Positions 1-64,000 of a stretch of DNA of 64,000 nucleotides are shown in pieces. The position numbers were made by a program, and so were the translations under genes. Numbering within the stretch: position 1 is the stretch's first letter; every line of letters starts with the position of its first letter. This DNA comes from a virus. Under the pieces are notes generated by a model. It saw nothing but the letters and a program-made list of their open reading frames with translations. It searched no databases and was not told the DNA's origin. The stretch spans positions 8,122 through 72,121 of IMG/VR virus record IMGVR_UViG_3300028800_000009; one strand, given 5' to 3'.

Positions 1-2
1 GC

Positions 3-695
3 GAGACCAAAATATCTTTTGGTGTTACCCTTAAGCGTATTCGCGCCCTCATCGAAATTAAATTATGGGGCGTCGCTAAGGGCGATCTCGGGGGATGGAT
101 CGAGAAAGAAGAAAATTTAGCCCGGGTCCACGGCGACGCCTGGGTCTCAGGCAATGCCCGGGTCTACGGCGACGCCCGGGTCTACGGCAACGCCCGGGTC
201 TACGGCAACGCCCGGGTCTACGGCGACGCCCGGGTCTCCGGCGACGCCCGGGTCTACGGCAACGCCTGGGTCTCCGGCAACGCCTGCGTCTCCGGCAACG
301 CCTGGGTCTACGGCGACGCCCGGGTCTCCGGCAACGCCTGCGTCTCCGACGACGCCCGGGTCTCCGACGACGCCTGGGTCTACGGCGACGCCTGGGTCTC
401 CGACGACGCCCGGGTCTACGGCGACGCCCGGGTCTACGGCAATGCCTGGGTCTCCGGCGACGCCCTGGTCTCTAAACCCATTATCGTTGCTTCTCGTTCC
501 GACGGTTATACTTTTCTTTGCGCGCCGCGAGAAAAGAAGCCTCCAGTTATTATTGCAGGATGCCGATATTTTACTTTTGGTGAAGCCCGAGAACACTGGG
601 AAAAGACACGAGGTGGTACGCCTCTAGGCGATGAATCTTTAGCTCTCGTCGATCATTTGGAAAGAATGGCAAAAATTCAAGGGTGGGTAGAATGA
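3..695 (+). CDS. Hexapeptide-repeat (left-handed beta-helix-like) phage protein, 5' truncated by window edge
   Basis: Frame 3, absent from the ORF track, reads ETKISFGVTLKRIRAL...KGDLGGWIEKEENL then (A[RWC]V[YS]G[DN])n and ends at TGA 693-695, overlapping the next ATG. Confidence 0.85.
   Translation, partial: ETKISFGVTLKRIRALIEIKLWGVAKGDLGGWIEKEENLARVHGDAWVSGNARVYGDARVYGNARVYGNARVYGDARVSGDARVYGNAWVSGNACVSGNAWVYGDARVSGNACVSDDARVSDDAWVYGDAWVSDDARVYGDARVYGNAWVSGDALVSKPIIVASRSDGYTFLCAPREKKPPVIIAGCRYFTFGEAREHWEKTRGGTPLGDESLALVDHLERMAKIQGWVE
130..470 (+). repeat. Coding 18-bp tandem repeat (GGC[G/A]ACGCC[C/T]GGGTCT[A/C]C)n
   Basis: About 19 imperfect 18-nt units, visible directly; they encode the hexapeptide repeats. 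Confidence 0.9.
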
Positions 696-1237
696 CCGAC
701 GACATCGAATCTGCCCCCGATCCATCGAACGACGACCTCGCCGAAGTCTCGCGTCTCGCTAAGCGCGTCCTGGAGCTATCCTCTACAATCGATGCGGCAC
801 AAGCCGAACTCGACGATATCGAGACGAAGGTCCTACCGGAGCTTATGGCTCTGGTAGGACTCGCCGAGTTCCGCCTCGATAGCGGCGAGATCGTGAAGCG
901 TGGGACCGTCGTCCGGGCGTCGATACCCGAAGAGCATCGCTACGAGGCCCACGCACGGCTCGCGGCGATGGGCCATGGCGATTTGGTCAAGCATGTTATC
1001 TCGCTCCAGTTCGGGAAGGGGGAGTCGCAGCAGGCGACGCGCGCCTATGACCTTCTTCGCCAAGAGTTCCCGGACCTTCCGATTGGGGATAAGGAGTCGG
1101 TTCACTCGGGCTCGCTCACGGCGCTGGTAAAGGAACTTCTCTCAAAAGGTCAAGACGTTCCGCTTGACCTTTTTGGCGTCTTCATCCGCCACGGTGTCAC
1201 GATCAAGGCGGCGCGGCGAAAGAAGGAGGAATTATGA
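692..1237 (+). CDS. Conserved phage replication-module hypothetical protein
   Basis: ATGA overlap with the upstream stop; LPELMALVG...VHSGSLTALVKE pattern seen in phage proteins near SSB genes. Confidence 0.65.
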   Translation: MTDDIESAPDPSNDDLAEVSRLAKRVLELSSTIDAAQAELDDIETKVLPELMALVGLAEFRLDSGEIVKRGTVVRASIPEEHRYEAHARLAAMGHGDLVKHVISLQFGKGESQQATRAYDLLRQEFPDLPIGDKESVHSGSLTALVKELLSKGQDVPLDLFGVFIRHGVTIKAARRKKEEL

Positions 1238-2553
1238 AAATCGTCAAGTTCCAGGCCGAGCACTTCAAACGGCTCAAGGTCGTCGAAATCTCCCCCAGCG
1301 GCGATATGATTACGCTCGCCGGCAAGAATGGATCAGGGAAGTCCTCCGTCCTCGACGCGATCTACGCAGCCCTCGGCGGCCGGGACGCCGCGCCCGAGGT
1401 CGCAATCGCGCGCGGCGAGGAGAGCGCCCGTATCCGCCTCGACCTCGGCGAACTCGTCGTAACGCGAAAGTTCACCGCGAGGGATACCTCAGTCGTCGTC
1501 GAGGCGGCTAACGGCGCGCGTTTCCCGTCGCCCCAGCGGATGCTCGACGACTTAATCGGCGCTATCGCCTTCGACCCGCTTCGGTTCGTAAGGCTGAAGC
1601 CGAAGGAGCAGATGGATGAGCTTAGGAAACTCGTCGCCTTCGACGTCGACCTCGACGACCTCGTCCGCCTGAACGCCGCCGATTACGAGGTGCGGCGGGA
1701 GATAAATCGGAGGGCGGCGAGTCTCAGGGCGCAGGGAAGCGCAATCATCGTGCCGGACGATTGCGCTTCCGATCCGGTCGACGCGAAGGAGATACTCGAC
1801 CGCCTCACGTCGGCGGGAGACGCGAACGGGAAGCTGGACTATGAGAGGCGTCGGCGCCGGAAACGTGCCGACGACGTCGAGTCGCTCCGAGTCTCGGCCC
1901 GTCTCAAACGCGAGCGGGCGGCGGAACTCAGGCTCGCGGCCGAGGCCCTCGACGGTTCAGCGCGGAAAGCCGACGACGACGCGATCGCGATAACCGCCGA
2001 ACTCGATGGCCTCGCGCCCGTCCCCGATCCGGTCGATGCAGCGGCGATACGGGCGGAATTGGCCGCTGCGGAGGTGATAAATTCCGCCGTCGCGCGACGC
2101 GCCGAGAAGCTCCAGCTCGAAGGAGCCGCGGCGGCCGAGGAGGTGAAGGCGGCAATCATCACAGAGACGATAGCGGGGCGCGAGAAGGAGCGCACCGAGG
2201 CCCTGGCTGCGGCTAAGTTTCCGATCGAGGGGTTAGCATTAGGGAAAGAGGAAGTTCTCTATCGCGAACTCCCTCTTTCCCTCGCCTCCTCCGGCGAGCA
2301 GATACGGGTATCGATGGCCATTGCGATGGCGATGAACCCGACCCTCCGGGTCATATCCATTCGGGAGGGATCGTTCTTAGACCAAGAAGGTCTAAGAACG
2401 ATCGCCGAGATGGCGCGGGAGAAGGGTTATCAGGTCTGGGTCGAAGACAACCGGTCGACCGACCCTATGGCGATCGTGATGGAAGACGGGAGCGTCTCGG
2501 AGTGCCCCGGCCACGTCGCGTCGGAGGCGGACCCGACCCGACGAGCCCGCTAA
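1234..2553 (+). CDS. SMC/Rad50-like AAA ATPase
   Basis: N-terminal Walker A GKNGSGKSS, central coiled coil, C-terminal ASSGE signature-like motif. Confidence 0.8.
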   Translation: MKIVKFQAEHFKRLKVVEISPSGDMITLAGKNGSGKSSVLDAIYAALGGRDAAPEVAIARGEESARIRLDLGELVVTRKFTARDTSVVVEAANGARFPSPQRMLDDLIGAIAFDPLRFVRLKPKEQMDELRKLVAFDVDLDDLVRLNAADYEVRREINRRAASLRAQGSAIIVPDDCASDPVDAKEILDRLTSAGDANGKLDYERRRRRKRADDVESLRVSARLKRERAAELRLAAEALDGSARKADDDAIAITAELDGLAPVPDPVDAAAIRAELAAAEVINSAVARRAEKLQLEGAAAAEEVKAAIITETIAGREKERTEALAAAKFPIEGLALGKEEVLYRELPLSLASSGEQIRVSMAIAMAMNPTLRVISIREGSFLDQEGLRTIAEMAREKGYQVWVEDNRSTDPMAIVMEDGSVSECPGHVASEADPTRRAR

Positions 2554-2575
2554 TTCCCCCCTAGCGGGTTAACTA

Positions 2576-2611
2576 CCGGGGCGCGTTCCCCCGAGCGCGC
2601 CCCGGCTTTTT
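2576..2611 (+). terminator. Rho-independent terminator
   Basis: CCGGGGCGCG...CGCGCCCCGG stem followed by CTTTTT. Confidence 0.75.
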
Positions 2612-2623
2612 CGAGAGGATATT

Positions 2624-2929
2624 ATGGCTATGAAGAAGAAGATTAACTGGAAAGCGCGGGCGCTTGAATCGGAGCAGGACCACGATATTATCCGCTTCGA
2701 GTTCGAGCGCCCGATCCCGATAATCCTCTTCTGCCCGATGTGCGGACTTCGCCATATCGACGTCGGCGAGTTCTCGGAGAAGCCCCACCATACCCATGCC
2801 TGTCAGGGCTGTGGCTTCGTCTGGCGGCCATCGACGCGCTTCACGGTCGGGGTCCAGTTCCTCCCCGATTTCAAGGACGACCCCGAGGCGATTAAGCGTT
2901 GGGAGAAAGCTCAAAAGGTGCCGTTGTGA
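2624..2929 (+). CDS. Hypothetical Zn-binding protein
   Basis: RBS GAGG; CPMC...HID...HHTHACQGC motif. Confidence 0.65.
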   Translation: MAMKKKINWKARALESEQDHDIIRFEFERPIPIILFCPMCGLRHIDVGEFSEKPHHTHACQGCGFVWRPSTRFTVGVQFLPDFKDDPEAIKRWEKAQKVPL

Positions 2930-3516
2930 ACCACATCATGATAGACCTGGAGACCCTCGGCGTCGGAACCTTCCCCGCACTCCTCTCGATTGGCGCGGTC
3001 GTCTTCGATCCGGAGAGCGGGGTATTACCTCCGACTCCTAATCTTGAAGCATCTGCGAGCAGTTGGATGATGCGCTTAATCAGCGTCGAGAGTTGCCTTC
3101 GCCTCGGCGCTACGGTTTCCGATTCGACACTCGCCTGCTGGGCTTCCCCCGAACTCGACGCCGCCCGCCCGGGGACGTTCGGGGGAACTTATCCCATAAA
3201 AGACGCGATCAATGACTTAAATATATTCGTATGCCATTACGGCGCGCAGCGGGTATGGTTCCACGGTTTGACTTTCGACGTCGCTATCCTTACGAGGTAC
3301 GCCGAGCTTGTCGGTTTATCCTGGCAGTTCGACTATCGCGCCGGCCGCGACACGCGGACGCTCTTCGACCTCGCGCCGGAAGTCGTCCGTGAAGCGTTCG
3401 CGGATAAGCCGTCCGAGTTTATTAAGCACAACGCGGTCTGGGACGCGTGGCTCCAAGCGAAAGCCGTTTGCAAAGTCTACGCTGAACTGAGGAATTGTCA
3501 GTGGTTCGCGGGCTAA
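2926..3516 (+). CDS. DEDD-family 3'-5' exonuclease
   Basis: HIMIDLETLG, FDVAIL, RDTRT and HNAVWDA motifs; GTG start overlapping the upstream TGA. Confidence 0.85.
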   Translation: MNHIMIDLETLGVGTFPALLSIGAVVFDPESGVLPPTPNLEASASSWMMRLISVESCLRLGATVSDSTLACWASPELDAARPGTFGGTYPIKDAINDLNIFVCHYGAQRVWFHGLTFDVAILTRYAELVGLSWQFDYRAGRDTRTLFDLAPEVVREAFADKPSEFIKHNAVWDAWLQAKAVCKVYAELRNCQWFAG

Positions 3517-3611
3517 AGCTCCGATCTTCCTCTATCCCGGCGGCCGACCGCCGCTGGCATGCCGCTCGCCGGGAGCGGCTTACATCCCCCGGCTGCCAAG
3601 AAGGAGTAATC

Positions 3612-4517
3612 ATGACTGAGAAGAAGCACCAGGACACCGAAGCAAAGAACCTGCCGGAAGAGATACCGCCAAAGCGCGAAGAGAATCGCGCTTTGGCCGT
3701 CGTCGATTACGGCGATCAGGCCGGCGCCGGCGCCGAGGGGATGAGCCAGGACGACTACAAGATTCCGCTGTTGCGAATCCTCCAGACCAATTCGCCCCAG
3801 GTCGACGGCGAGAAGAAGATCGAGGGGGCGGTTGCGGGGATGATCTTCAATACGGCGACCCAGGAGTTTTGGGACGTGACGAAACAAAAATTAATTTTCG
3901 TTCCGTCACAACGAGACCGGAACTTCGTCGAGTATATCCCGCGCGAGCCGTGGGGCGGCGGTTTCGTCGGAACGCGGAAGCCGGACGATCCGCTCGTCCT
4001 TAAGCTTCTCAAAGAGCAGGGGAAGTTCGGGAAGCTGAAGTATGCCGAAGGGACGACACTCGCGACGACCGGCCAGCAGGTCCCGACCGAGATCAGCGAT
4101 ACGTTCTACCTCTACGGTATCGTTGTGACGCCGTACGGGGTCCCCCAGCGCGCGGTCATCCCGTTTACCTCGACCCAAATCCCGAAATACCAGGCATGGG
4201 CCGCGGTCTACGATAACACGCGCTACCCCGGGAAGAACCGCTCGCTCATCCTCCCCCCGGTGTGGTGCCACCGCTACGCGCTCGGGACCCGCGCCGAATC
4301 GAACAAGAAGGGGCGTTTCTACGGCTGGACGCTCGGCTTCGAGAAGAGCCCGTCGATCGAGAGCCGGATCGATGCGCGGGAAGGCCATCCCGAGTTCGAC
4401 CCGCTGGCGAAGATGGCGTCGGAGTTTTACGATATGATCAAGCGGGGCGCGGCGAAGATCGACCGCGATGCCGAGCAGGCCGCCGGCGTCGAGAAGGACG
4501 AAGAAGTTCCGTTCTAG
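3612..4517 (+). CDS. Single-stranded DNA-binding protein (putative)
   Basis: RBS AAGGAG; IPLLRILQ..SPQ motif; acidic C-terminal tail EKDEEVPF. Confidence 0.7.
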   Translation: MTEKKHQDTEAKNLPEEIPPKREENRALAVVDYGDQAGAGAEGMSQDDYKIPLLRILQTNSPQVDGEKKIEGAVAGMIFNTATQEFWDVTKQKLIFVPSQRDRNFVEYIPREPWGGGFVGTRKPDDPLVLKLLKEQGKFGKLKYAEGTTLATTGQQVPTEISDTFYLYGIVVTPYGVPQRAVIPFTSTQIPKYQAWAAVYDNTRYPGKNRSLILPPVWCHRYALGTRAESNKKGRFYGWTLGFEKSPSIESRIDAREGHPEFDPLAKMASEFYDMIKRGAAKIDRDAEQAAGVEKDEEVPF

Positions 4518-4703
4518 ATGAAGCTTGTTCGATCCAACGGTAGTGAGCTTACGGTAAGGGATACGGGGCCGGTCGTTTTCCGGCTCCGTGCCTCGCCGGG
4601 CGCCCCGTTACCGTTGTTGGATGAAGTTATGGAAGAGGAGGAAGCCAGGATCATCCTTCGAACGCTCCTGGCTTCCCGCCGCTACGAAGGGGGTAAGGTA
4701 TGA
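4518..4703 (+). CDS. Hypothetical protein
   Basis: Abuts both neighbouring genes. Confidence 0.5.
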   Translation: MKLVRSNGSELTVRDTGPVVFRLRASPGAPLPLLDEVMEEEEARIILRTLLASRRYEGGKV

Positions 4704-5191
4704 CGATACTCTGCGACCGCGACTTGCTCGAACTCATGAGGGATGGCCTCATTTCCCCATTCGACCCGGAGATGATCAATCCGGCGAGCATTGATATCCG
4801 GGTTGGTCGAACGGCGATCGTCGAGGGCAATGACGGCCTTAACGTCCCACTGACGCTAGGCGAGTACGGCCTCCTCGTCGCCCCTGGGGAGACGGTCCTG
4901 ATCTCGACGATGGAGACCTTCGATATCCCGAACGGGTATGCGATGGACCTGCGCCTCAAGTCATCGATCGCTCGGCGGGGGTGGAACCACGCCCTCGCGT
5001 TCTGGGTTGATCCCGGGTGGCGTGGGGTACTTACGATGGAGGTGACGAATAAACTCCGCTACAACCACCTGATCCTGACGCCGGGCGAGCGTTTCGCCCA
5101 GGTGATCGTCCACGAGCTATCGGCGCCATCGGCCCGGCCATACGCCGGGAAATATAAGGATTCCAACGCAGTATCGGGAGAACGGAAATGA
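4700..5191 (+). CDS. dcd: dCTP deaminase
   Basis: INPASIDIRVG, KSSIARRG, VDPGWRGVLTME motifs. Confidence 0.9.
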   Translation: MTILCDRDLLELMRDGLISPFDPEMINPASIDIRVGRTAIVEGNDGLNVPLTLGEYGLLVAPGETVLISTMETFDIPNGYAMDLRLKSSIARRGWNHALAFWVDPGWRGVLTMEVTNKLRYNHLILTPGERFAQVIVHELSAPSARPYAGKYKDSNAVSGERK

Positions 5192-5343
5192 GCGAAAGAT
5201 ACAAGATCGAACGCGAGAACGGCGATCGGCCGAGCCTTTCCTGCTACGAGATTGTCGATACCGTCGAAGGCCGGGTATTGGCAACCCGGCTCCTCTACCG
5301 CGATGCTGAAAAGATTGCGATGACCCTCAACAAATCACTTTAA
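5188..5343 (+). CDS. Small hypothetical protein (51 aa)
   Basis: MSERYKIERENG...NKSL, ATGA-coupled to dcd; not in the ORF track. Confidence 0.55.
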   Translation: MSERYKIERENGDRPSLSCYEIVDTVEGRVLATRLLYRDAEKIAMTLNKSL

Positions 5344-5404
5344 CTCCGCCGAGGGATAGGTTATATAGGTTGGACTGTTTCGGACCCAACCGGGAGAATC
5401 AAGC
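5339..5404 (+). promoter_or_regulatory. Sigma70-like promoter plus conserved leader (copy 1)
   Basis: TTTAAC-17-TATATA followed by GACCCAACCGGGAGAATC. Confidence 0.6.
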
Positions 5405-6055
5405 ATGAATCAGATCACCAAGTTTTTCGTCGTCGACTACCGTCTATTGAACGATATCAAGATCGCTGAATATCCAACCGAGGAGGAAGCTCGCACGAAC
5501 TGCCCGTCCGAGGGCGGCGCGAGCGTCGTTACCTCCGAGGAAGCGCTCCGCGCCTTCGACGGACCAATCCTCGTCGCGGTGTACAACCGTATCCGCCGCG
5601 GCGCCATGATCAAACGGTTCGAGAGCAAGGAAGCCGGCGTCCGCCGTGTCTGGGTTCTTTTGGAGAACTACGACCCGGCGCTGATCAATCCCTCGGCTTC
5701 GCCCGAGGTTCCCAAAACCGAACCGACGACGGGCGAAGCCGCCGGCGACAAAGAGGAGGCCGATATGGCCGCAAAGACGAAGTCCAAACGCAAGTCCGCC
5801 GGCCGCGGCGTCAAGAAAACGAGCGCGCGCGCGCGTTCGTCCGATACGAAGCGCGCGCGTATCTCCGACGACGCGAAGATCACGGTCCTCGCGGCCGAAA
5901 ACCCGAAGAAGCCCGGCTCGGAGGCTTTCAAACGCTTCGAGAAATACCGGACCGGCTCGAAGGTCTCGACGACGCTCGCGAACGGCGTCACGCGCGCCGA
6001 TCTGTCGTGGGACCGCGCCCACGGCTTCATTGCGATCGAGAACCCGAAGGAATAA
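5405..6055 (+). CDS. Basic, putative DNA-binding protein
   Basis: K/R-rich linker and C-terminal ENPKKPGSEAFKRFEKY...DLSWD domain. Confidence 0.6.
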   Translation: MNQITKFFVVDYRLLNDIKIAEYPTEEEARTNCPSEGGASVVTSEEALRAFDGPILVAVYNRIRRGAMIKRFESKEAGVRRVWVLLENYDPALINPSASPEVPKTEPTTGEAAGDKEEADMAAKTKSKRKSAGRGVKKTSARARSSDTKRARISDDAKITVLAAENPKKPGSEAFKRFEKYRTGSKVSTTLANGVTRADLSWDRAHGFIAIENPKE

Positions 6056-6076
6056 TACCTCCGGGGAGGGTAGGAT

Positions 6077-7027
6077 ATGGGCCTTAAATCCGCGGTAGCG
6101 TTCTTCAAAGGGATACCTGACCGGACGAGGGATATCTATTCCTTTGACGAGGGTTGGATGTATACCTCGGCCCTCTCCCTCGACGCGGCCTACCCGGTCC
6201 CCCATATGCTCGGGAAGTTTGGCCTTACCGCTTCCGACCTCGACGCCGCCGTAACCCGGTTCGCCGGGGAGCCGCGGGTCGAGGCCGGTGACGGGACACT
6301 CGTCCTCAAATCCGGGCGACTGAAGAGTTCCATCGACCTCGTCGACGTCGACGAGCCGAGTCAGGCGCTCCATAAAACCGTGCCGAACCCGGACGCGATA
6401 CCGGAGAACCTCCTCGAAGCGATCGAGAGGGTCCTACCGTTCGCTGCTAGCGACGGGACGTGGCAGAAGTCGGTCGAGCTATCGAAGGGGAAGGTCCGGG
6501 CGATTGATTCCTATCACGGCGCCTCGGCGGAGGTCCCCGGGCTCGACCTCGGCGATCCTCTCCCGTTGCCCGCGGATACCCTCAAATTCATCGTATCGCG
6601 GGAGGCGCCGATCGGGATCAAGCGGCTCCCCTCGGCGCTCGCTATCTTCTGGGCCTCCGGAGCGTGGGTCCTGCTTAGGCTCTCGACCCAGGCGTGGCCT
6701 TCGCTGGCGGACAGTATCTTCGCCAAGGCGAAGGATGCGGAGACGCCGGTCGCCTTTACCGACGAATGGCGCGAGGCGTTCGTCGACGTCGCCGCCCTCG
6801 GGGACGGATATATCGACCTCGCCCCGGACGGCCTGACCGCGAAGACGGCTCACGCCGAGGCTCGCGCGGAGCTACCGACAGGCGCGGCCGGTAGCTCGCG
6901 CTGGCGGCGGGCGAACCTCGCCGACGTAATGAAAGTCGCCACCCACTGGGATCCCGACGCTCCGGCCCCGGCCCCGTTCCGCGGCGATGGGATCGTCGGT
7001 ATCGTCGCGGGCGTGAGGACGAAGTAA
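6077..7027 (+). CDS. Sliding clamp (DnaN beta)-like protein
   Basis: Size, position before the polymerase, and LLEAIERVLPFA-type segment; inferred. Confidence 0.5.
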   Translation: MGLKSAVAFFKGIPDRTRDIYSFDEGWMYTSALSLDAAYPVPHMLGKFGLTASDLDAAVTRFAGEPRVEAGDGTLVLKSGRLKSSIDLVDVDEPSQALHKTVPNPDAIPENLLEAIERVLPFAASDGTWQKSVELSKGKVRAIDSYHGASAEVPGLDLGDPLPLPADTLKFIVSREAPIGIKRLPSALAIFWASGAWVLLRLSTQAWPSLADSIFAKAKDAETPVAFTDEWREAFVDVAALGDGYIDLAPDGLTAKTAHAEARAELPTGAAGSSRWRRANLADVMKVATHWDPDAPAPAPFRGDGIVGIVAGVRTK

Positions 7028-7028
7028 A

Positions 7029-7610
7029 GTGGGGAACCGTATATCGGCGCTCCTTCACACCCATTCTATCGCGCCGGATAAGGCTAACCGTCATCCATCC
7101 GATTTTTATCGCACGCCACCTATCGGAACCGAGCGCTTACTCGATTACGAACAGTTACGCGGCACGGTATGGGAACCGGCGTGCGGCGACGGGGCGATCA
7201 GCGAAGTCCTAAAGGCCCGCGGGATTAAAGTTATCTCGACTGACCTCTATAATCGCGGCTATGGCCGGTCCGGGGTAGACTTCCTTACGGCCAAACCGCC
7301 GAAAGACTTCGCCCATATCCTTACGAACCCACCTTTCAAACTGATCGAGCCGTTCGTCGCGCGAGCCCTAGAAGTAACGCCGCGGAAGGTAATTATCCTC
7401 GCGCGTCTACTCTGGTTAGAAGGGAAGACGCGCCGGAAGTTCTTCTTAAAGGCGCCATTAAAGCGTATTTGGGTCTCATCCTCCCGCCTGAACGTCTCGC
7501 GCGGCGGTAAGGACTACGGCGACGGAGGGGAGGGCGGAATGGTTGCCTTCGCCTGGTACGTCTTCGAGCGCGGATATAAAGGGAAACCAGAGCTAGGATG
7601 GCTACCATGA
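7029..7610 (+). CDS. DNA amino-methyltransferase (N6A/N4C)
   Basis: DFYRTP, WEPACGDG (SAM binding), TNPPF catalytic motif. Confidence 0.85.
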   Translation: MGNRISALLHTHSIAPDKANRHPSDFYRTPPIGTERLLDYEQLRGTVWEPACGDGAISEVLKARGIKVISTDLYNRGYGRSGVDFLTAKPPKDFAHILTNPPFKLIEPFVARALEVTPRKVIILARLLWLEGKTRRKFFLKAPLKRIWVSSSRLNVSRGGKDYGDGGEGGMVAFAWYVFERGYKGKPELGWLP

Positions 7611-7617
7611 GGAAACG

Positions 7618-10944: not shown

Positions 10945-10961
10945 CGCATTATGTAACGGCA

Positions 10962-11351: not shown

Positions 11352-11359
11352 GGGCGAGT

Positions 11360-11704: not shown

Positions 11705-11746
11705 TTCCATGCTTATCCGGTTGTCGCACACAGGAGCTAGGGGTTG

Positions 11747-53717: not shown

Positions 53718-53721
53718 GGCT

Positions 53722-54510: not shown

Positions 54511-54525
54511 CCTAGCTTTACTTCC

Positions 54526-54900
54526 TTATCCGCCTTCCGATTTAGACTTACTACGCTTATTGGCTTCGGAAATTGCCCTTGATAAACCAAGATTAGGTCC
54601 AGGCCCTTCTCCGATACTAGCAACTCGCGTTGCCACAGTCGGACCATTTTTATAGACCTCATAGAACCCTTTAGGATGTTTCATGACGTAATGAGTCTTA
54701 TCTGGTGACTCGTGTAAGATTCTATGCTCTTGAGATTTATTATTTCTACCAGCTTTATGCGACGTCGAACCTCCTCCGCTTGTGAACTGCCCATTACTAG
54801 GATCGTGCTTCGTCTCGGCGTCCATCGCAAGGCGGCGTTGGCGCTGTTCGTCGGAAAGAAAACCTGCCATCGCGGTCTGGGTCGAGGTATATTCAGTCAT
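54526..54900 (-). CDS. Small basic protein, possible internal head protein
   Basis: AMD motif followed by HDPSNGQFTSGGG; lower-GC C-terminal half. Confidence 0.6.
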   Translation of the reverse strand: MTEYTSTQTAMAGFLSDEQRQRRLAMDAETKHDPSNGQFTSGGGSTSHKAGRNNKSQEHRILHESPDKTHYVMKHPKGFYEVYKNGPTVATRVASIGEGPGPNLGLSRAISEANKRSKSKSEGG

Positions 54901-56591: not shown

Positions 56592-58246
56592 CGCCGACGA
56601 GCCGTCAGGCGGGCCAGTTCGGTCGAAAACTCCTTCGTTACCTTCATACCCTTCTTTACCTTCGCGAACCGGATCATCACCGCGTCGTAGAGGTTCGGAG
56701 AGCGGGCTCCGTTGGGTTTCTTATCGATGAGGTATTTCCCGGCCCCATTCTTCGAGTAGGTAGGCTGGGATAGCTCAACCGTAAGTTGCGATAGGACCGG
56801 GATCGAGGAGGAGATCGAGATAAGCTCATCCTGATCCCAATCCTTAAAAGTCGGATCGGTAACGGCCCGAAACGTGGTCTGGAAGCGCGTCCGTAACGCC
56901 CACGCGGACTGAGCCTTCGCGTTCGCGAACGCATCCTCGTTCGGTACGCCCTCGATATCCTCGGCGAGCGGATCGACGATCTCCCCCGAGCCGCGAAACG
57001 CCGTGACCTCGATCTCACGGCCCTTGCGCCTCTCGTTAATTACCCGCGCGTCGCCGCGGACACCCGCACCGAGGCCATCGCCGTCGTAGCGGAATTCCTT
57101 GTAGCCGCGCACGTCGCAGATGAAGAATGCGCGCTGAACCGTCGAGAAGATATCGTCGCCCTTACCGCTCCAGTCCTCGACGTGCTCGACGACGACGCCG
57201 GTCGCGCCACAAAACGCGTTAAGGTCGATACCCTCGTCAGCGACGTCGAGCGCGCCAAGCTTAACGCCGGTAGGCCTGAAGCCGAGTTTTAAATGAGCAT
57301 CGATCGCGGCCTGGACCCACGGACTCGGGATCAGAACGCCCTCGACCGAGGCCGAGTAGTCGATATCGATCTCCTGGGCGACGACGACCGGATTCTTGAT
57401 CCGCGCCTTCGCGGCCTCGTACCAAGCGTCGTCCTTCCGCGGATCATCACGCCAATGGAACGTGAAAACGTCCTCGGGCGGATAGGAGAACCGCTTCTCC
57501 GCGAACGGGTTCGCTCGGCCGTTAACCGAGCTGATGTCAATGCGGCAGTTCGTCGTCATCGAGAGTGAGAAATCGACGAGAAGCGGGTGCTCAAGATGGG
57601 CCGACTCGTCGACGATATAGAAGGATCGCCGATCGCCACGGCCGATATTATCGCCAACCTCGCCGCCGATCATCGAACCTGTCTCGGGAAATCTCATCTG
57701 CATATACGGTGCGTCGCGGGCCTCTTCCCATCCCCCACGGAACTCGGGCGGTAGGTTCCTCGCGAAAATACGCCCCTTGACGAAGATCGACTTCGGCTCG
57801 CCGATCTTATCGACGTAATCCGCGAGACGTGAACCGAACCCGATCGAGAGCCCGTCGTTAAAGATCGAGACCGTCACGGCGAACGCGATCGTTAGCCACG
57901 ATTCACCGACCTCGCGGGATTTATCAGAGATACCCGAACGCGCATTACGCCAATGATCATGAAGCCACTCTAAGAATTCGCGCTGGCGCTTAAAGAGGAC
58001 GAACGGTACAAGCGCCGGAAGATTCCTCTGGGTCGGGTTGCGCGGATCGAAGGTCATCCCCCAGTCGTTAACGAACTCGACGGGGTTCGCGCGGTAGTAG
58101 GCCCGAAGAGCTGGGAGTACGGAGGGTGGTCTTCCCTCCCTCCGCTCCTCCTCGACCGCCGCGCGGATGCGCGCGAGCGCTTCGATCCGAGCCTTTAGGA
58201 TTGGCGTATAGTCCGGGTTCTTAAAGTCGAACTCGCCGTAGTCCAC
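56588..58246 (-). CDS. terL: Terminase large subunit
   Basis: KSREVG Walker A variant, VDESA Walker B, LDVADEG.D nuclease motif, SPNLYDA. Confidence 0.92.
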   Translation of the reverse strand: MDYGEFDFKNPDYTPILKARIEALARIRAAVEEERREGRPPSVLPALRAYYRANPVEFVNDWGMTFDPRNPTQRNLPALVPFVLFKRQREFLEWLHDHWRNARSGISDKSREVGESWLTIAFAVTVSIFNDGLSIGFGSRLADYVDKIGEPKSIFVKGRIFARNLPPEFRGGWEEARDAPYMQMRFPETGSMIGGEVGDNIGRGDRRSFYIVDESAHLEHPLLVDFSLSMTTNCRIDISSVNGRANPFAEKRFSYPPEDVFTFHWRDDPRKDDAWYEAAKARIKNPVVVAQEIDIDYSASVEGVLIPSPWVQAAIDAHLKLGFRPTGVKLGALDVADEGIDLNAFCGATGVVVEHVEDWSGKGDDIFSTVQRAFFICDVRGYKEFRYDGDGLGAGVRGDARVINERRKGREIEVTAFRGSGEIVDPLAEDIEGVPNEDAFANAKAQSAWALRTRFQTTFRAVTDPTFKDWDQDELISISSSIPVLSQLTVELSQPTYSKNGAGKYLIDKKPNGARSPNLYDAVMIRFAKVKKGMKVTKEFSTELARLTARRR

Positions 58247-58247
58247 A

Positions 58248-58769
58248 CTAGCGGCCGGCGACGAGCTTTAAATAATGCTTTGTTAGTTCCTCCGGCGTAT
58301 TCGCCGGCATCGGGAGGACGTTCGAGGTCGAGCCTTCGGGCGGCGCTGGTGCGCCGAAGAAGCCATCGTCGGCCATGTTCCGCATCGCGATAGCCAGCAT
58401 CCGGGGATGGCAATACGGCGCGGCCTTAACCGCGCACGATTGAAGCTTATCGCGCGCCTGAATAAGATTGTCGATCGCCGCCTCGCGCTCTCTCATCGCA
58501 GCATCCCATTTCTTCTGGTACTTCTTCTGGGCCGCCTCGTCGAGATATTGCTTATCGTCCTCGGAGTAGGCGAGAGAATTTTCCCAAGTCCGGATAGCCT
58601 CTTTGTCGAACCACGCGGCGCGGCGCGCCCAAAACAACATGTTGTCCAGCAGGAAGTCCCGCGGCGTACGCCCGCTCGCCTCTAACGCGCGGAGGCGCGA
58701 GCGGTCGCGCAGGGTCGGCGGCGGGATATCTAGCTGCTGGAAGCCTACTTGACGTTCCATCGGACTCAT
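58248..58769 (-). CDS. Terminase small subunit (putative)
   Basis: Directly upstream of terL; TP.DFLL..M and AAPYCHPR motifs. Confidence 0.7.
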   Translation of the reverse strand: MSPMERQVGFQQLDIPPPTLRDRSRLRALEASGRTPRDFLLDNMLFWARRAAWFDKEAIRTWENSLAYSEDDKQYLDEAAQKKYQKKWDAAMREREAAIDNLIQARDKLQSCAVKAAPYCHPRMLAIAMRNMADDGFFGAPAPPEGSTSNVLPMPANTPEELTKHYLKLVAGR

Positions 58770-58918
58770 AAGCTTTTAGGGATGAGGCGCCCCGCGTCCC
58801 CCCAAAGTCGTCACCCTTTCTAGGGGACCTCTGAGGTGGTAGGCCGGGAAAAAGTTCGAGGAGCTACCGGCCGTACTTTCGGTAGGGGAGTCCTACCATA
58901 CTCATACAAGATGAAGTC

Positions 58919-58948
58919 TTTATACGCTAAAAACGCACGAAACGTAAA
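58919..58948 (-). promoter_or_regulatory. Putative late promoter upstream of the terminase genes
   Basis: - strand TTTACG-18-TATAAA followed by a leader with two hairpins. Confidence 0.55.
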
Positions 58949-58951
58949 GAA

Positions 58952-59461
58952 CTATTTTACGAGTTCGACCGTATGAGCCGGAAGTGGTACCTCTAGATCA
59001 CGATTAAATAGTTGAAGTAAAAGGAATATCCGTCCTCGCTCGCGCCCCAAGAATTTGCCGATACGGTCGCTATAGGCGCCCGAAGTCACGCGTAGATCAG
59101 CGCCGGGCAGGAGGCTAAGCAACCATGCGTCGCCACTCGGGGTCTCAAATTCACCGCTCTCGATCCGCGAGCGAAGCTCCGCTACGAGTGAGCCTGATAG
59201 GGATGATGGCTTCTCGCGCCCGACCGGAAGGAGCCCGAGGACGCCGCGCGTCGACCGAACGTCGCGCCACCGGTCGCTCGACTCGACGAAGATATAACCC
59301 GGAAAGAGCGGAGCGTCCCGACATCGTCGCGCGCCACGGACGACCCGGCAAAGCTCATAGGTCGGACTGTACGCAACGAAGCCGTCCTCCACCAACTTTT
59401 CGTACGCAACGCGCTCAGCCCAGGGGTGAGTTACGGCGACAAACCAGGGATTTTCGCTCAT
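58952..59461 (-). CDS. NusG/RfaH-family transcription antiterminator
   Basis: WFVAVT, PLFPGYIFV, STRGV and a KOW-like C-terminus. Confidence 0.88.
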   Translation of the reverse strand: MSENPWFVAVTHPWAERVAYEKLVEDGFVAYSPTYELCRVVRGARRCRDAPLFPGYIFVESSDRWRDVRSTRGVLGLLPVGREKPSSLSGSLVAELRSRIESGEFETPSGDAWLLSLLPGADLRVTSGAYSDRIGKFLGRERGRIFLLLQLFNRDLEVPLPAHTVELVK

Positions 59462-59659
59462 ACCCCCTCTACCCTGTATCGTACGATAGGGGGTAGGCTG
59501 GATTTCGCTATCTTTTCAATACCCCGACCCCCTCTACCCCCTCTACCCCCTATAATATAAAGGTTAGTATTAAAACGCGTATTGCGCCGCGCCGTGGCGC
59601 CTATACGGAGTAGGGGGTCGGGGGGGTTTAGGGGGGTATGTTCCATTTTTGTTCCTATC

Positions 59660-61948
59660 TTAGAAGGGGATTTCATCGTTATCGGTAAGTATTCCCTTAC
59701 CGTCTCCGTCATAGAAGCGTGGGTTAGGTTTCCCTATTTCCCACCGGTAGAGGTCTAAAACGCCCGATCCGTCGCGCTCGATCACTATACGCGAGTTGCG
59801 TTCGACCGCGTCTCCCCGGGCATAGCAATTTTTGATTTTTCCGTCGAAGGTTAGCTTCGTTCGCTCCCAGCCTAGAGCCCTCATCGCTTCGCCAAGCCGA
59901 ACGAAGTGATCCTGTAATCTCATCCCTTCGGGAATATTAACGACCGCCCAGATGTCGGCGGCCAATATCCTACCGGTTACTTCACCCGAGGCGTTCGCGA
60001 CGCGCTCTAGCGCTTTCTCGACGAGCGAAACCCAGGGCTCATCGACGAAACGCTTCGATTGCTCTTCCGCCGCGGCGGTCCAGAGGCTCTGATCTAACCG
60101 GATCGAGACCCCCGCGACTTCGAGAGCTGCGGCTTCGGCCCAGAGTTGGTCGCGATCGGCGAGGAGCTTCGCGAGGTCGATTGTCCCGATACGGATCGGC
60201 CAGAAGCGGCGATTCCCGGTCGTATCCCTAAGGTAGACATCGGCGTTCGTCGTTCCGACGAAGACGACCGAGCGGCCGGGCTCGGATACGAACTTCCCCC
60301 ACGCGAGGCGCGCGCGGTCGGTCTGCTTCGAAAGGAACTGCTTTAAGGCTTCGACGGCGGCGCCTTTCATTCCCTTCAACTCGCCGACTTCGATGATCCA
60401 TTTACCGGCGAGGGCCTCGATAACCTTATCCTCGTCCATCCCAAGGTGAAAAGAATCGGAGAACCATTCGTCTCGGACCGCGAGGACCCGGAGCGCGGAC
60501 GACTTATCGAGCCCCTGCTCCGGGCTCTCTAGGATTACCATCTCGTCGAACTTGGCCCCCGGCGCCCGCGCCCGCCGCGCCGCCGCTACGAGAAGGAGCC
60601 GCCCGACGGCGGAAGAATAGGGGGTCGCGGCGACGCCGAGGTAGGTCGAGAGCCAGGAATCGACGCGCTTTACGCCATCCCATTTAAGTTCATTCAGGTA
60701 ATCGCGGACGGGATGATACGAATTCGAGAACGCGGCGTCGCGGACGACGGCGTAGAAATATTCGGTCCCTGGGCGGAACCGCCAGCGTGCCTCGATCGAG
60801 AGCCAGAGCCGGGTCATTTCCATATCGTCGAGAAGCCTTAAGGGTTTATCCTCCGGCCCTTCGATCAAATACCTCATGGAGAAAGTATCATAGGAGACGT
60901 CGACGCCGAGCCGGAGCATCGCCAGCCGTATGTTTTCCTGGGTCGCGAGTATTCCCTTAGAGCCCGTCGCGAAGCCTTCCCCGACCTTCGCCCGCGCCTG
61001 GAGCGCCTGCCGAAGCGCATACTCCCCGGGTTTCGCCTGATCTCGTATATGCTCCGAGATACCGTTCTCGGGATCGAGGAGTACGGCTACGATCTCGCGG
61101 TCGCTTCTTCCCGCGCGGACGAGCGCGGCGGCGACGGCGAAGACCGCGCGGCTTCGGTCGCCGCCGAAGTTCCGGTCGCCGGTCGGGTCGGTCCCGAGCT
61201 TCGCGACGCGGCCGACCCATTCGGGTAGATCACCCCTCGGTATAATCGCGTCGTCGGAAGCGCGGACGACGTCCGCCTTCGGCGCCTCTACGCGGGGAAA
61301 CCTTTTATCCTCCGCGTCGTAGACTAACCCCCAGTCGGCCCACTCCTCGCGCGCGAGCGCCTTCGTCCGGCCCTTCTCGCGCTTCTTCTTATCCGGCACG
61401 TTCACGGTGCCGGGGAGCCTCATGATCCGGTCGACGTTGTGACAATGATCACCCCCGAGCGCCCGCTCCAACCCTCGGTTGACCGATTCGATCCGCTCGT
61501 AGTCGTTCGCGCCATGGATGAGGACCGGCTCTTTTAGAAGCCAGAAGGCTTGATAGCCGCCGCCGGAGAACAGGACGACGCTGGGTCTGGGATCGAATGC
61601 TTCGAGTCGCGCTTTTATATCGCGACGCGCGACGAGTAGGTCGACGTCCTTCGGCGGGTCGACGTCCACGTGATAAGCCAAGGCCGCGGCGATCTCTTCT
61701 TTCTCGGCCTTTTTGACCAATATCTTCGCCGGCCGGTTAACGGAAAAGTAGACGTTGCGTTTTCCCTGGCTCCAATTAATCCAGGCTGCCGCTTCCCTCT
61801 CCTGATCCGACCGGTAGGTATGAACTTGAACCTTTCGCGTCTCGGGGTCGATCGCGGTTAAGACCCAGAGCCCTTTGGGCTCCCATCGCTTTAAAAAAGC
61901 GACCGCCTCGTCGGTAACACCGTAGAGGAGTTCGTCCGGCTCGGCCAC
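59660..61948 (-). CDS. Primase-helicase (RepB-like primase plus VirE/VapE ATPase)
   Basis: HVDVD, FSGGGYQAFW, RIMRLPGT; YHPVRDYL, PGAKFD, QGLDKS, D.TGNRRFWP. Confidence 0.88.
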   Translation of the reverse strand: MAEPDELLYGVTDEAVAFLKRWEPKGLWVLTAIDPETRKVQVHTYRSDQEREAAAWINWSQGKRNVYFSVNRPAKILVKKAEKEEIAAALAYHVDVDPPKDVDLLVARRDIKARLEAFDPRPSVVLFSGGGYQAFWLLKEPVLIHGANDYERIESVNRGLERALGGDHCHNVDRIMRLPGTVNVPDKKKREKGRTKALAREEWADWGLVYDAEDKRFPRVEAPKADVVRASDDAIIPRGDLPEWVGRVAKLGTDPTGDRNFGGDRSRAVFAVAAALVRAGRSDREIVAVLLDPENGISEHIRDQAKPGEYALRQALQARAKVGEGFATGSKGILATQENIRLAMLRLGVDVSYDTFSMRYLIEGPEDKPLRLLDDMEMTRLWLSIEARWRFRPGTEYFYAVVRDAAFSNSYHPVRDYLNELKWDGVKRVDSWLSTYLGVAATPYSSAVGRLLLVAAARRARAPGAKFDEMVILESPEQGLDKSSALRVLAVRDEWFSDSFHLGMDEDKVIEALAGKWIIEVGELKGMKGAAVEALKQFLSKQTDRARLAWGKFVSEPGRSVVFVGTTNADVYLRDTTGNRRFWPIRIGTIDLAKLLADRDQLWAEAAALEVAGVSIRLDQSLWTAAAEEQSKRFVDEPWVSLVEKALERVANASGEVTGRILAADIWAVVNIPEGMRLQDHFVRLGEAMRALGWERTKLTFDGKIKNCYARGDAVERNSRIVIERDGSGVLDLYRWEIGKPNPRFYDGDGKGILTDNDEIPF

Positions 61949-61950
61949 GA

Positions 61951-62157
61951 CTACCGAACCTTCCGCCTGATCGGCCTTTCTCGGATAAACGCCTCGACCT
62001 CGTCGACGTAGTAGAACCGCGCGTGCCCGAGCCCGTAGACCGGGAGCCCGGCCTCTTCCCATGCCTCGACTTGGTCTTTCGAGAGTGAGTATCGTAGCTT
62101 AAGCTCGTCGCGCGTGATCATTTCCCCGCGGCTTACCGCCGCCGTCGCGCTGGCCAT
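61951..62157 (-). CDS. Small HTH DNA-binding protein
   Basis: W...GLP.....ARF....V..F, an excisionase/AlpA-like pattern. Confidence 0.65.
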   Translation of the reverse strand: MASATAAVSRGEMITRDELKLRYSLSKDQVEAWEEAGLPVYGLGHARFYYVDEVEAFIRERPIRRKVR

Positions 62158-62179
62158 TCTAGCTACTCCCACGCATGTA

Positions 62180-62306
62180 CGATTTACGGCATAAATAGGG
62201 CGTAACTCTATAACCCCTATTTTTCCCTAAGTAAACCGTAAAAATACCCTATTTACTTTTCCCGCCGAGGCGCGTAACGTAGCCGAACCTAACCGGGAGA
62301 ATCAAT
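62180..62306. promoter_or_regulatory. Divergent promoter region; + strand promoter plus conserved leader (copy 5)
   Basis: + strand TTTACT-17-TAACGT then GAACCTAACCGGGAGAATC; - strand TTTACT-17-TATAGA; repeated AAATAGGG/CCCTATTT boxes. Confidence 0.7.
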
Positions 62307-62549
62307 ATGGCCGACCCTAACTCCCACTCATCGCGGCCCGAGGGCGCCGTCGTCGCCCTCCGCTCGCCGGCCCGTACCCCGATCGCCGTATGCTTGATCG
62401 GTGCCTACAACGTCGCGCGTAAGCTCGATCGAGAAACGATCGAGCGTAGCGGAATTATCGACCTCCTCCTTCTCTACGCCGAGAAGCACGCTAACCCCTC
62501 GGCGAGAGCCCTCGCGGCCGACCTCGCTGCCAAACTTACGGAGAAATAA
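62307..62549 (+). CDS. Hypothetical protein
   Basis: Follows the conserved leader. Confidence 0.6.
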   Translation: MADPNSHSSRPEGAVVALRSPARTPIAVCLIGAYNVARKLDRETIERSGIIDLLLLYAEKHANPSARALAADLAAKLTEK

Positions 62550-62830
62550 TGCGTCCCATCTATACCGTCGTCGCCGTCTTCGCGCTCCTTACCTTCGCCG
62601 CCGCGCGCGCGGCCGATAAACCTATCCCTCCGGCCGCCGCCGACGCACCCCTTCCGCTCCCCGCTAAGGTTCACTACGACGACCTAAGCGGGGACGAGGC
62701 CCAGACGATCATTATTGCGCTGGGCCGGTCGAGCGTCGCCGCCTCGGTCGTCGTTCCGCTGATGAACAAGCTCTCGGCTCAGCTTACCGAGCAGGCGAAG
62801 GCCGAAGCCGCGAAGAAGAATCTCCCATGA
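62549..62830 (+). CDS. Small signal-peptide protein
   Basis: MRPIYTVVAVFALLTFAAARA signal. Confidence 0.65.
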   Translation: MRPIYTVVAVFALLTFAAARAADKPIPPAAADAPLPLPAKVHYDDLSGDEAQTIIIALGRSSVAASVVVPLMNKLSAQLTEQAKAEAAKKNLP

Positions 62831-62982
62831 GCATCGATTGCGCTTCGGTATTCCTACACGCAAAACGGTTGAGGTTACTTGTCATCGGATCGGCGGTCCT
62901 CTTCGGCTTATGCCGTCACGCCGCAACTCGCCGCCGAATTCATCCTTGCCGCGATAGCGGTGTAGCATAATAGGAGCCGAGC

Positions 62983-64000
62983 TTGATTCAGCTTTCGACC
63001 ATTCGATGCGCCGTCGATATCCTCAAGGGGAGATTGCCGGGCGCGCTCGCGATGCTCAAGGCGCGCGATGCCTCGATTGCAATTCGACACACTGACGATA
63101 GTGCGTCGTGTGAGATTACATTTTACTTCGACCGAGACACCAAAAGCGCAGGGAATGCCTATCGAGCGATCGAGCGCATTTACGAGATGACCCGCGAACA
63201 ATTTCCAAAGCGATAAGGGAGCCCGCCGTGTTCGTTGCGCTGCCAACCGAAATCCACGACCAAATCGACGCGCTGATTGATGGCGCCATCGCAAAGACGC
63301 CGGAGGCCGCTGGCGAACGCGCGGACCTACGCGCGCAGCTCGTGCGCTATTTCTGCGATTGGGATCATCTGCCGACGGCACAGAATCTATCAATCGAACG
63401 GAGACAGCAAGATGGCGAATGATCTCATTGAAGAAGCTCGGCGCGTCGCGATGCGGATTTGTCCGATCCCATCGCAAGTAGAAGATGGCGATTCTATCGA
63501 ACGCATGCCAGACGACCTGCTCCAGGCATGTAGCGTAATTAGTCGCCTGTGCGATGCCGTTGAGGTCCGCGATGGCGAAGAGACAGGCTGGGTTATCGAG
63601 CACGGCCGCTCGCAGCCATCGCATCCTGAATATTGGGCGGCTACTGGTTTCGACCATGACAACCTGAAGGCCATTCGCTTCGCACGGAAAGAAGATGCGG
63701 AGCGCGTCGCGAATGCGTTGGGCGGCGGCTGGCCGGAAGGCTATCACCGCATTGCCGATCATATGTGGTGCCGGTGATGTTGGGGCACAACGTCCGGGTC
63801 TATCTCAGCTCGCCAAAAGAAGACGTGAGCGGAGCCAACGATGAATGAGCGATGCGGCTGGTGCAGCAGCGAAACGAGCAAGGTCTACCACACCGGCTAT
63901 TGTCCGCAGGTAAAGGCAATCGAGTACTATCCCGACGGATCGGTGAAGCGCGTCGAATTCCATTCGCATCAGTCAACAATTACGATGGACCCGCGAGTGC
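62983..64000 (+). CDS. Run of small accessory ORFs (62983-63216, 63228-63422, 63412-63777, 63777-63848, 63841 to window end)
   Basis: Coupled + strand ORFs with accessory-type composition. Confidence 0.55.

Follow-up and report, generated by a model that had tools for sequence, protein, structure and literature searches.

Halving of the dinucleotide CA/TG in the backbone of a myovirus-like soil phage and its absence from recently acquired islands

Dinucleotide footprints, such as CpG decay and APOBEC motifs, have on several occasions revealed the enzymes behind them. Among bacteriophages, thymine dioxygenases are sequence-specific, 5mYOX176 prefers the context NTG, and glycosyltransferases occur in 31% of the contigs with such enzymes, according to the accessible part of the report (PMC13229309); phage pairs of a C5-methyltransferase and a TET enzyme act at GpC, again as given in the accessible part of the source (PMC8256090). 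The accessible parts of these two papers and of two others (10.1101/2023.12.21.572611, PMC8989533) make no mention of compositional footprints, and a full-text literature search, limited in extent so that the statement is a weak one, yielded no account of phage genomes depleted in CA/TG. Here we describe such a depletion in the virus record IMGVR_UViG_3300028800_000009, a complete genome of 72,121 bp that IMG/VR classes as having direct terminal repeats and that PHROG and Pfam scans identify as a contractile-tailed, myovirus-like soil phage. The stretch analyzed, called the window below, comprises bases 8122-72121 of the record (64,000 nucleotides). Over most of it the dinucleotide CA and its complement TG occur at about half the expected frequency, and the shortage is missing from a few sharply bounded islands. 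The phage, or near-identical strains, is present in public rhizosphere-metagenome runs, eight of the 15 runs listed holding a share of at least 0.2.

The shortage had been noticed in a first-pass annotation of the window, which counted 5, 4, 18, and 20 occurrences of CA+TG in four samples of 120 nt. These counts are exact on recount, and the sample with 4 falls within the long fibre gene (Table 1). About 14 per 120 nt are expected at a G+C content of 62%; the 65% quoted with the counts does not apply, the window having 60.0%. The symmetrised odds ratios (rho) of the whole window are 0.637 for CA/TG, 1.446 for CG, 1.31 for GA/TC, 1.25 for AT, and 0.92 for TA. In 1-kb windows rho(CA/TG) lies between 0.38 and 0.75 over most of the stretch, with the lowest values (0.38-0.41) over the primase gene at 59.5-62 kb, and between 0.93 and 1.21 at about 11-16.5 kb, 26.5-30.5 kb, and 63-64 kb. 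A two-state Markov segmentation of the complete genome defined a core of 55,913 bp (78% of the genome) with a rho(CA/TG) of 0.56, and five island blocks totalling 16,208 bp with a rho of 1.03. The segments are bimodal and their borders sharp: core segments have values of 0.52-0.59, island segments of 0.97-1.05, and none falls between. The other dinucleotides differ as well, CG, TA, GA/TC, and GC being 1.48, 0.97, 1.35, and 0.96 in the core and 1.27, 0.64, 1.11, and 1.24 in the islands. This segmentation agrees with the positions that the first-pass annotation had proposed for the normal DNA (about 11.3-16.9, 26.9-31, and 62.9-64 kb), and its view that the CA/TG contrast separates the backbone from recently acquired DNA is borne out close to those positions.

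Heavily modified DNA can give systematic errors on some sequencing platforms, and an error of base calling or assembly that converts CA/TG at modified sites would mimic a depletion. We regard such an artefact as highly improbable. Contigs from four independent public runs match the core with 0-2 differences per listed piece, the long open reading frames (ORFs) are intact and show normal homology to relatives, and Trp and start codons are retained. At the 2,773 identical aligned residues used for the codon comparison with a related phage, G001, amino acid use is hardly altered, with 74 Trp in both phages and, for this phage and G001 respectively, 235 and 244 Gln, 43 and 56 His, and 98 and 115 Met. 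The CA/TG depletion is thus real and very strong, and is no artefact.

The level at which the pressure acts was defined by codon controls. When synonymous codons were permuted within each gene, which leaves the protein and the codon usage of each gene unchanged, the 50 core genes had 1119 CA+TG at codon boundaries as compared to 2220±33 after shuffling (z -33), and the seven island genes had 342 as compared to 351±12 (z -0.8). With codons redrawn from position-specific base frequencies, the ratio of observed to expected was 0.59 for the core and 0.95 for the islands. Therefore rho stays well below 1 when codons are controlled for. On the coding strand of the 50 core genes, the odds ratios of CA at codon positions 1-2, 2-3, and 3-1 are 0.72, 0.68, and 0.44, and those of TG are 0.80, 0.43, and 0.54; all six values in the seven island genes lie between 0.78 and 1.18. 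The core intergenic DNA (14 stretches, 2,200 bp) includes 129 CA+TG where about 266 are expected, i.e., a rho of 0.48, and there is no strand asymmetry, CA and TG being equally low whichever strand bears the genes. No 3-mer or 4-mer stands out after correction for lower-order composition. The lowest 4-mers after Markov correction are CTAG (0.63) and GTAC (0.73), and the 12 lowest include no CA/TG palindrome. Taken together, the codon shuffle, the intergenic depletion, the strand symmetry, and the lack of a longer word indicate a pressure on the dinucleotide step in double-stranded DNA, and the codon controls support the strong, context-specific pressure at the DNA level that the first-pass annotation had suspected.

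A mere preference of translation for C-ending over G-ending codons after T could be all that this pattern reflects, since CTG and GTG are indeed shunned, as had been remarked in the first reading of the window (Leu, 48% CTC and 12% CTG; Val, 59% GTC and 10% GTG), and the least depleted core stretch, at 0.71-0.74, spans the major capsid gene. The shuffle that keeps codon usage nevertheless expects twice the observed number of boundary CA+TG, the intergenic DNA is equally depleted, and on the coding strand CA is reduced as well as TG. These codon-position, shuffle, and intergenic results refute codon usage as the cause, and we give this explanation next to no weight. Other G-ending codons (GCG, CCG, ACG, and TCG) are preferred.

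The core had also been described as rich in CG and TA, which is correct, and both can be read as by-products of the avoidance of CA/TG. Where codons ending in a pyrimidine precede A, T|A reaches 1.43, and before G, C|G reaches 1.37; G|A at codon boundaries is 1.43. Within codons, NTG is replaced by NTC (1.42) and NCA by NCG (1.54). TA, which would be the deamination product if the C of CpA were hit, is 0.97 in the core, 0.64 in the islands, and 1.30 in the core intergenic DNA; CG and GA/TC are up too, and coding constraint alone predicts the rise of TA. The excess of CG, TA, and GA/TC therefore fits CA/TG avoidance under coding constraint, and no second force is needed.

Comparison with relatives places the depletion within this lineage. 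The complete 70-kb virus records G001 and G002 have the whole structural module in common with this phage at 30-63% amino acid identity, and include no match to its fusion of a TET-associated glycosyltransferase (TAGT, Pfam family PF20691) with a DNA polymerase. Their rho(CA/TG) is 1.06 and 1.16, their TA 0.44 and 0.37, and every 1-kb window is at least 0.85. At the identical residues mentioned above, this phage uses CTG, GTG, and TTG 36, 14, and 21 times and G001 79, 68, and 49 times; at codon boundaries it has 65 CA, 62 TG, and 63 TA, where G001 has 153, 98, and 20. The comparison with G002 gives the same pattern. The true relatives are G005 (104 kb) and G006 (96 kb), with which the phage has in common the polymerase (59% and 48% identity, respectively), the primase, the SNF2 helicase, a gp34-like protein, and structural genes, and which match its dCTP deaminase at 36% identity. 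Both lack TAGT and, as judged by tblastn, the 193-amino acid methyltransferase encoded next to the fusion, and both show a mild form of the signature, with a rho(CA/TG) of 0.85 and 0.89, a TA of 0.85 and 0.88, and a codon-boundary ratio of 0.87 (z about -11.5). The CA/TG depletion is thus lineage-specific and a derived state with respect to these relatives. A search of GenBank phage DNA with the primase gave short matches only (77-134 nt), and scans of viral contigs with part of the polymerase, the primase, or a 680-amino acid island protein singly, and of genome contigs with the island protein, the sheath, or the reductase singly, gave no matches.

We read the islands as recent horizontal acquisitions of ordinary composition, located where phage genomes are commonly plastic. 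Composition breaks at their borders, their content is accessory, relatives lack them, and close homologues occur in other DNA. Their contents are small methyltransferases, distal tail-fibre genes, and early ORFs, and none has a homologue in the four relatives except for one weak match of 57 amino acids to G005. The genes of island 3 match no PHROG or Pfam family and lack homologues in G001, G002, G005, and G006, while the flanking baseplate and fibre-base genes do have them; we interpret them as genes for the distal tail fibre or for host range. Genes with 74-75% identity to a C5-methyltransferase of the islands are found on contigs of two Hyphomicrobiaceae and one Lysobacterales metagenome-assembled genomes (MAGs), and these contigs, with a CA/TG of 0.99-1.16, a TA of about 0.5, and a GC dinucleotide ratio of 1.07-1.31, are close to the island profile. 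The islands are present in contigs of four runs and, as an indication from the pieces listed, are more polymorphic between samples than the core, with 14 differences in 8.1 kb as compared to 2 in 16.3 kb; the 40 variant positions listed all fall in 26397-29839, and the differences among public contigs are too few for a mutation spectrum. At the left edge of the tail-fibre island, positions 26397-26482 hold about 19 differences in 86 nt that are common to runs X1 and X3, suggesting either an alternative allele or a junction of recombination.

As phages generally drift towards the composition of their hosts, the backbone could mimic a CA/TG-poor host or former host, the islands being derived from phages that infect other hosts, or the phage being a recent hybrid after a host switch. 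The sharp bimodality with islands all at about 1.0 would fit a single recent hybridization, the signature is present, though milder, in G005 and G006, and the preferred codons CTC, GTC, TCG, CCG, and ACG resemble what we take to be an exaggerated rhizobial pattern. On the other hand, other parts of the three MAGs with the closest relatives of the island gene, which through that gene stand for candidate host clades, are normal in their chromosomal DNA (rho(CA/TG) 0.89-1.29, TA 0.36-0.44), and so are phages of Rhizobium (0.93), Rhodobacter (1.05), and Pseudomonas (PaMx11, 1.05). The tail-fibre island, which must work on the present host, is also normal, and depleted phages, described below, span a G+C content of 41-65%, one of them with a rho(CG) of 1.78, which to our knowledge is beyond any known bacterial genome. 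Since the values of the MAGs, the comparison phages, and the tail-fibre island are all ordinary, mimicry of a host is the least probable of the explanations that we still consider seriously, and an unlikely one. Two other origins were discarded: thymidine hypermodification of the M6/PaMx11 type, as PaMx11 has a rho of 1.05, and a halophile source, hinted at by the codon pattern, as the proteome is not acidic (D+E 11.0%, K+R 9.9%).

The explanation that we consider best overall, with a probability of about 0.45, is a context-specific mutation bias intrinsic to the phage. According to this proposal the vertically inherited backbone (55.9 of 72.1 kb, comprising replication, structural, and lysis genes and the intergenic DNA) would have been driven to about half the expected CA/TG by a pressure that acts on double-stranded DNA, is symmetric with respect to the strands and specific for the dinucleotide, and is a property of the phage's lineage and not of codon usage or the host. 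Wherever the protein fixes the neighbour base, an avoided T|G would be turned into C|G, an avoided C|A into T|A or G|A, and NTG into NTC. The five blocks (16.2 kb), which comprise the early region and its two C5-methyltransferase genes, a pair of insertions into the replication module, and the distal genes of the tail fibre, would keep the composition of their gene pool, having presumably arrived by horizontal exchange too recently for erosion. The most likely driver would be a context-dependent bias of the phage's own replication and modification machinery, analogous to CpG decay. The prime suspects would be two proteins missing from the mildly depleted nearest relatives, namely the fusion of glycosyltransferase and polymerase and the small methyltransferase next to it. 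On this view the pressure would be phage-intrinsic, and the mutation bias linked to this polymerase-glycosyltransferase/methyltransferase module.

The fusion protein includes the TAGT domain at residues ~115-317 and the polymerase at ~490-1090. Its match to PF20691 scores 122.5 bits against a cut-off of 27.5, and its gene is located in the core and strongly depleted, with a rho of 0.42-0.50 along its length. Eleven further proteins (P0002-P0012) have the same TAGT-polymerase architecture, and a metagenome scan with an alignment of the fusion proteins returned stand-alone glycosyltransferases only. Polymerases of this family, among them P0030, P0033, P0035, P0065, P0070, P0074, and P0088, often carry an N-terminal DNA-modifying domain: besides the 12 glycosyltransferase fusions, many relatives have PF01555, an N6/N4 methyltransferase, and several of these PF01555 carriers are on contigs of about 70 kb. 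The 193-amino acid methyltransferase gene lies directly upstream of the fusion gene, also in the core. The protein, which has an NPPF motif, has 363 stand-alone homologues of about 190-200 amino acids with no Pfam domain recorded. Two of these are on contigs of 19,192 and 28,454 bp, sizes equal to those of contigs with polymerase relatives, which suggests a conserved methyltransferase-polymerase neighbourhood. Both C5-methyltransferases are found in non-depleted islands and, being located in DNA that has not been eroded, are not the long-term cause.

To place these genes against the signature, the dinucleotide profile of every stretch fetched was computed, and stretches of at least 4 kb with a rho(CA/TG) below 0.75 were counted as depleted. 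Among the 92 viral-contig stretches that the fusion protein retrieved, 91 matched TAGT, and the minimum rho, 0.79, belongs to the one that matched the polymerase. Depletion is seen in three of the 47 TAGT stretches from metagenomes that are 4 kb or longer (L145, 0.65; L136, 0.73; L107, 0.74), and none of the 65 polymerase relatives is below 0.79. Overall, a rho below 0.75 is found in only five of the 291 stretches that measure at least 4 kb (first percentile 0.72, median 1.07), in collections that overlap and are not all independent. These five have G+C contents of 41, 65, 56, 57, and 49% and show the companion shifts (CG 1.32-1.78, TA 0.80-1.10), and the three that were tested, L145, L107, and L136, have the same codon-boundary effect, with ratios of 0.56, 0.71, and 0.66. 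In a tree of 130 glycosyltransferases, L145, L107, and L136 lie in one broad cluster together with non-depleted members (support 0.17) and the glycosyltransferase of the window sits elsewhere; therefore the subtype is no predictor of depletion. From the counts it follows that the signature is rare, recurrent, and not explained by TAGT or the small methyltransferase alone, which are neither sufficient nor, in other phages, needed.

Several results weigh against a mutation bias caused by this module. Among the 138 other stretches that carry TAGT and are at least 4 kb long, 135 have a rho of at least 0.75, and the depletion is likewise missing from 78 of the 80 stretches with the small methyltransferase, the two exceptions being L345 (0.65) and L297 (0.71). 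Within the stretches compared, the six depleted phages share no gene beyond the search bait. The complete genome, in which TAGT is present, has no detectable Tet_JBP, ParB, or thymidylate-synthase family gene that could provide a hydroxymethyl base: a six-frame search with PF12851 and PF02195 gave nothing at E <=1, which a very divergent member could still have escaped, and no obvious dioxygenase candidate was seen by eye among the unannotated core ORFs. The contrast with G005 and G006 is confounded by all the other differences among genomes of 72, 104, and 96 kb, and the candidate host clades rest on one methyltransferase gene. In addition, the five islands are all at about 1.0 with no intermediates, though a steady pressure and random times of acquisition predict some; the pressure could lie in the past, or the phage could be of recent hybrid origin. 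Finally, mutation bias and weak selection predict an identical pattern at equilibrium. That the depletion is possibly a footprint of the phage's own DNA modification, as the first-pass annotation proposed, is a hypothesis with evidence on both sides: the absence of both genes from the mildly depleted G005 and G006 speaks for it, and the normal TAGT and small-methyltransferase stretches, the lack of a gene common to the depleted phages, the missing source of a hydroxymethyl base, and the location of the C5-methyltransferases in islands speak against it. A broader version, which we think doubtful, is that a minority of phages (about 2% of the stretches sampled) have an unrecognized property of modification or replication that makes CA/TG hypermutable, for example a thymine in TpG oxidized or glycosylated by an enzyme invisible to family models.

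Selection by a host factor that acts in proportion to CA/TG density could be responsible instead, such as a nuclease or defence with a very short or degenerate target, a CRISPR protospacer adjacent motif (PAM), or a cost of modification per site, the islands being DNA that is not yet purged. We know of no defence that recognizes CA/TG. This explanation draws on the fact that every single-base neighbour of CA/TG gains, beyond the products of transitions (T|A and G|A, 1.43; NTC, 1.42), and on the recurrence of the signature at G+C contents of 41-65% with no common gene, as a shared enemy would allow. In addition, Pseudomonas phages reportedly deplete the dinucleotide PAM of a type I-F CRISPR system (PMC12174588). 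Yet about 4,900 CA/TG remain in the window, and the avoidance of two bases gives no escape comparable to the loss of a site of 4-6 bp; no 4-mer with CA/TG is depleted beyond its dinucleotide content; and the strength per site would be very weak, although the count is halved genome-wide. We therefore hold selection to be unlikely, a little less so than host mimicry, and retain the phage-intrinsic mutation bias as the preferred explanation.

The profiles collected in the survey revealed other biased phages. Several TAGT stretches with a G+C content of 30-37% are nearly free of CpG (rho(CG) 0.08 in L001 and 0.16-0.33 in L096, L102, L116, L183, L039, and L081); the lowest rho(CG) among the 65 polymerase relatives without a glycosyltransferase is 0.45. 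Other TAGT stretches with about 42% GC (L002-L006, L120, and L140) have a rho(CC/GG) of about 0.4, a TA of 0.32-0.42, and a GA/TC of 1.4-1.6, and AC/GT is 0.49-0.64 in L072, L053, and L097. These shortages of CC/GG and AC/GT show that other dinucleotide-specific depletions exist among the phages surveyed. The strongest CpG excess among the stretches profiled is that of L297, a 20.6-kb stretch of a 65.7-kb viral contig with 49% GC, in which rho(CG) is 1.78, CA/TG 0.71, and TA 1.10, uniformly throughout. The CA/TG-depleted stretch L107 includes, at 1366-2412, a TnpB/Cas12f-like ORF (OrfB_IS605 and a Cas12f1-like TNB domain).

The general organization of the genome, as annotated with PHROG and Pfam, is summarized in Table 1. 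The replication module, on the plus strand, encodes the SNF2 helicase, Pam3 gp32-34-like proteins, an exonuclease, the dCTP deaminase, the 193-amino acid methyltransferase, and the TAGT-polymerase fusion, and ends with a Dda-like helicase and a ribonucleotide reductase. The structural module, from the portal through the baseplate and fibres, is on the minus strand. Genome positions 1-5719 include the two small C5-cytosine methyltransferases and an RNA-ligase-like gene (Pfam, PHROG), and no tRNA genes were found in the genome. The N-terminal part of the long fibre gene product has 61% identity to G001 and G002 over 36-81 amino acids. A major-head-protein ORF (48383-49897, minus strand; match at residues 180-504) overlaps the upstream minor-head/scaffold-like ORF (49488-50660, minus strand) by about 400 nt in another frame, for which either a downstream start of the capsid gene or a frameshift linking both ORFs could account. 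In the replication module, a 439-amino acid ATPase encoded at 1234-2553 has as its best PADLOC match mad3 of the methylation-associated defence system (E 1.6e-15), and the methyltransferases give weak mad2 matches; both probably reflect generic ATPase and methyltransferase similarity. PADLOC and NCBIfam scans of the island and modification genes gave generic methyltransferase and ATPase matches only, and no informative match to the small methyltransferase or to the one C5-methyltransferase used as query came from a PDB sequence search.

Table 1. Segments and selected genes of the window, with positions in the window unless stated otherwise; rho is rho(CA/TG).
Feature	Position	Strand	Values and matches
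Core segment, replication module (dCTP deaminase, small methyltransferase, TAGT-polymerase fusion)	1..10908; begins 2.4 kb before the window		rho 0.52 over genome 5720-19029; 1-kb windows 0.42-0.68
dCTP deaminase, in core	4700..5191	+	TIGR02274, 102.8 bits (cut-off 92.8)
Amino-methyltransferase, 193 amino acids, EPACGDG and NPPF motifs	7029..7610	+	phrog_799, E 3.7e-58
TAGT-DNA polymerase fusion, 1108 amino acids	7618..10944	+	PF20691, E 2.9e-35; phrog_1252, E 5.5e-161
Island 1, small ORFs, normal CA/TG	10909..11961		rho 1.01; no PHROG, Pfam, or PADLOC match
Short core-like piece between two islands	11962..12750		rho 0.59
Island 2, ORFs on both strands including a Dam-like N6-adenine methyltransferase	12751..16287		rho 1.04; PF02086 and TIGR00571 matches at 13654-14376
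Core segment, Dda-like helicase, ribonucleotide reductase, lysis genes	16288..26355		rho 0.56; PHROG/Pfam annotation
Island 3, genes downstream of the long fibre gene	26356..31011		rho 1.05
Core segment, whole structural module, terminase, NusG-like protein, primase	31012..62757		rho 0.57
Long fibre gene, 762 amino acids, in core; island 3 begins at its 3' end	31060..33348	-	segment boundary 31011/31012
Island 4, crosses the genome ends into genome 1-5719	62758..64000		rho 0.97 here, 1.04 in genome 1-5719

In this phage a non-palindromic dinucleotide has been halved over the backbone, relatives that share replication genes show it mildly (0.85-0.89), those that share only the structural module are unaffected, and the signature recurs in unrelated phages of differing G+C content. 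If the cause is a property of modification or of the polymerase, this would be a new context-specific mutational process in viruses of bacteria, and the signature would offer a way to find, from sequence only, phages that carry it. Should CA/TG be hypermutable, phage DNA would undergo an erosion like CpG decay that raises rho(CG) to as much as 1.5-1.8 and abolishes the usual shortage of TA, and the signature could serve as a built-in clock dating each horizontally acquired block. Whatever its cause, the contrast gives here a sharp and assumption-free map of recent acquisitions, which include anti-restriction methyltransferases and host-range genes.

With respect to known systems, the depletion is most readily compared with the loss of CpG by deamination of 5-methylcytosine in vertebrates and their small viruses. 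In both cases one dinucleotide is scarce throughout the genome, whether the DNA is coding or not and on either strand, the dinucleotides one mutational step away are overrepresented, and young or exempt DNA stands out as islands. However, CA/TG is the product and not the substrate of CpG decay and is non-palindromic, and no methyltransferase of matching specificity is known here, the C5-methyltransferases being found only in the DNA that is not depleted. The pathway of 5mYOX and glycosyltransferase is comparable in that 5mYOX176 acts preferentially at TG, as far as the accessible part of its description goes (PMC13229309), and that this phage carries a glycosyltransferase of the TET-associated family. 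It differs in that its TET/JBP dioxygenase (HxD...H) and the ParB of the NTG subclass were not found by the six-frame search; 5mYOX176 is the only TG-specific phage DNA-modifying activity found in the literature, within the accessible parts of the sources, and is an enzyme not detectable here. The avoidance of restriction sites and PAMs by phages is likewise a compositional footprint of a threat at the DNA level that is missing from recently acquired DNA, but it normally concerns words of 4-6 bp, or a PAM weakly, whereas in this phage no longer word is depleted beyond its dinucleotides and thousands of sites are left. The islands themselves resemble bacterial genomic islands and their amelioration: gene borders mark abrupt changes of composition, the genes carried are accessory ones (methyltransferases and host range), relatives lack the blocks, and close homologues are found elsewhere in DNA of like composition. 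The difference is that here it is the islands that are ordinary and the backbone that is odd.

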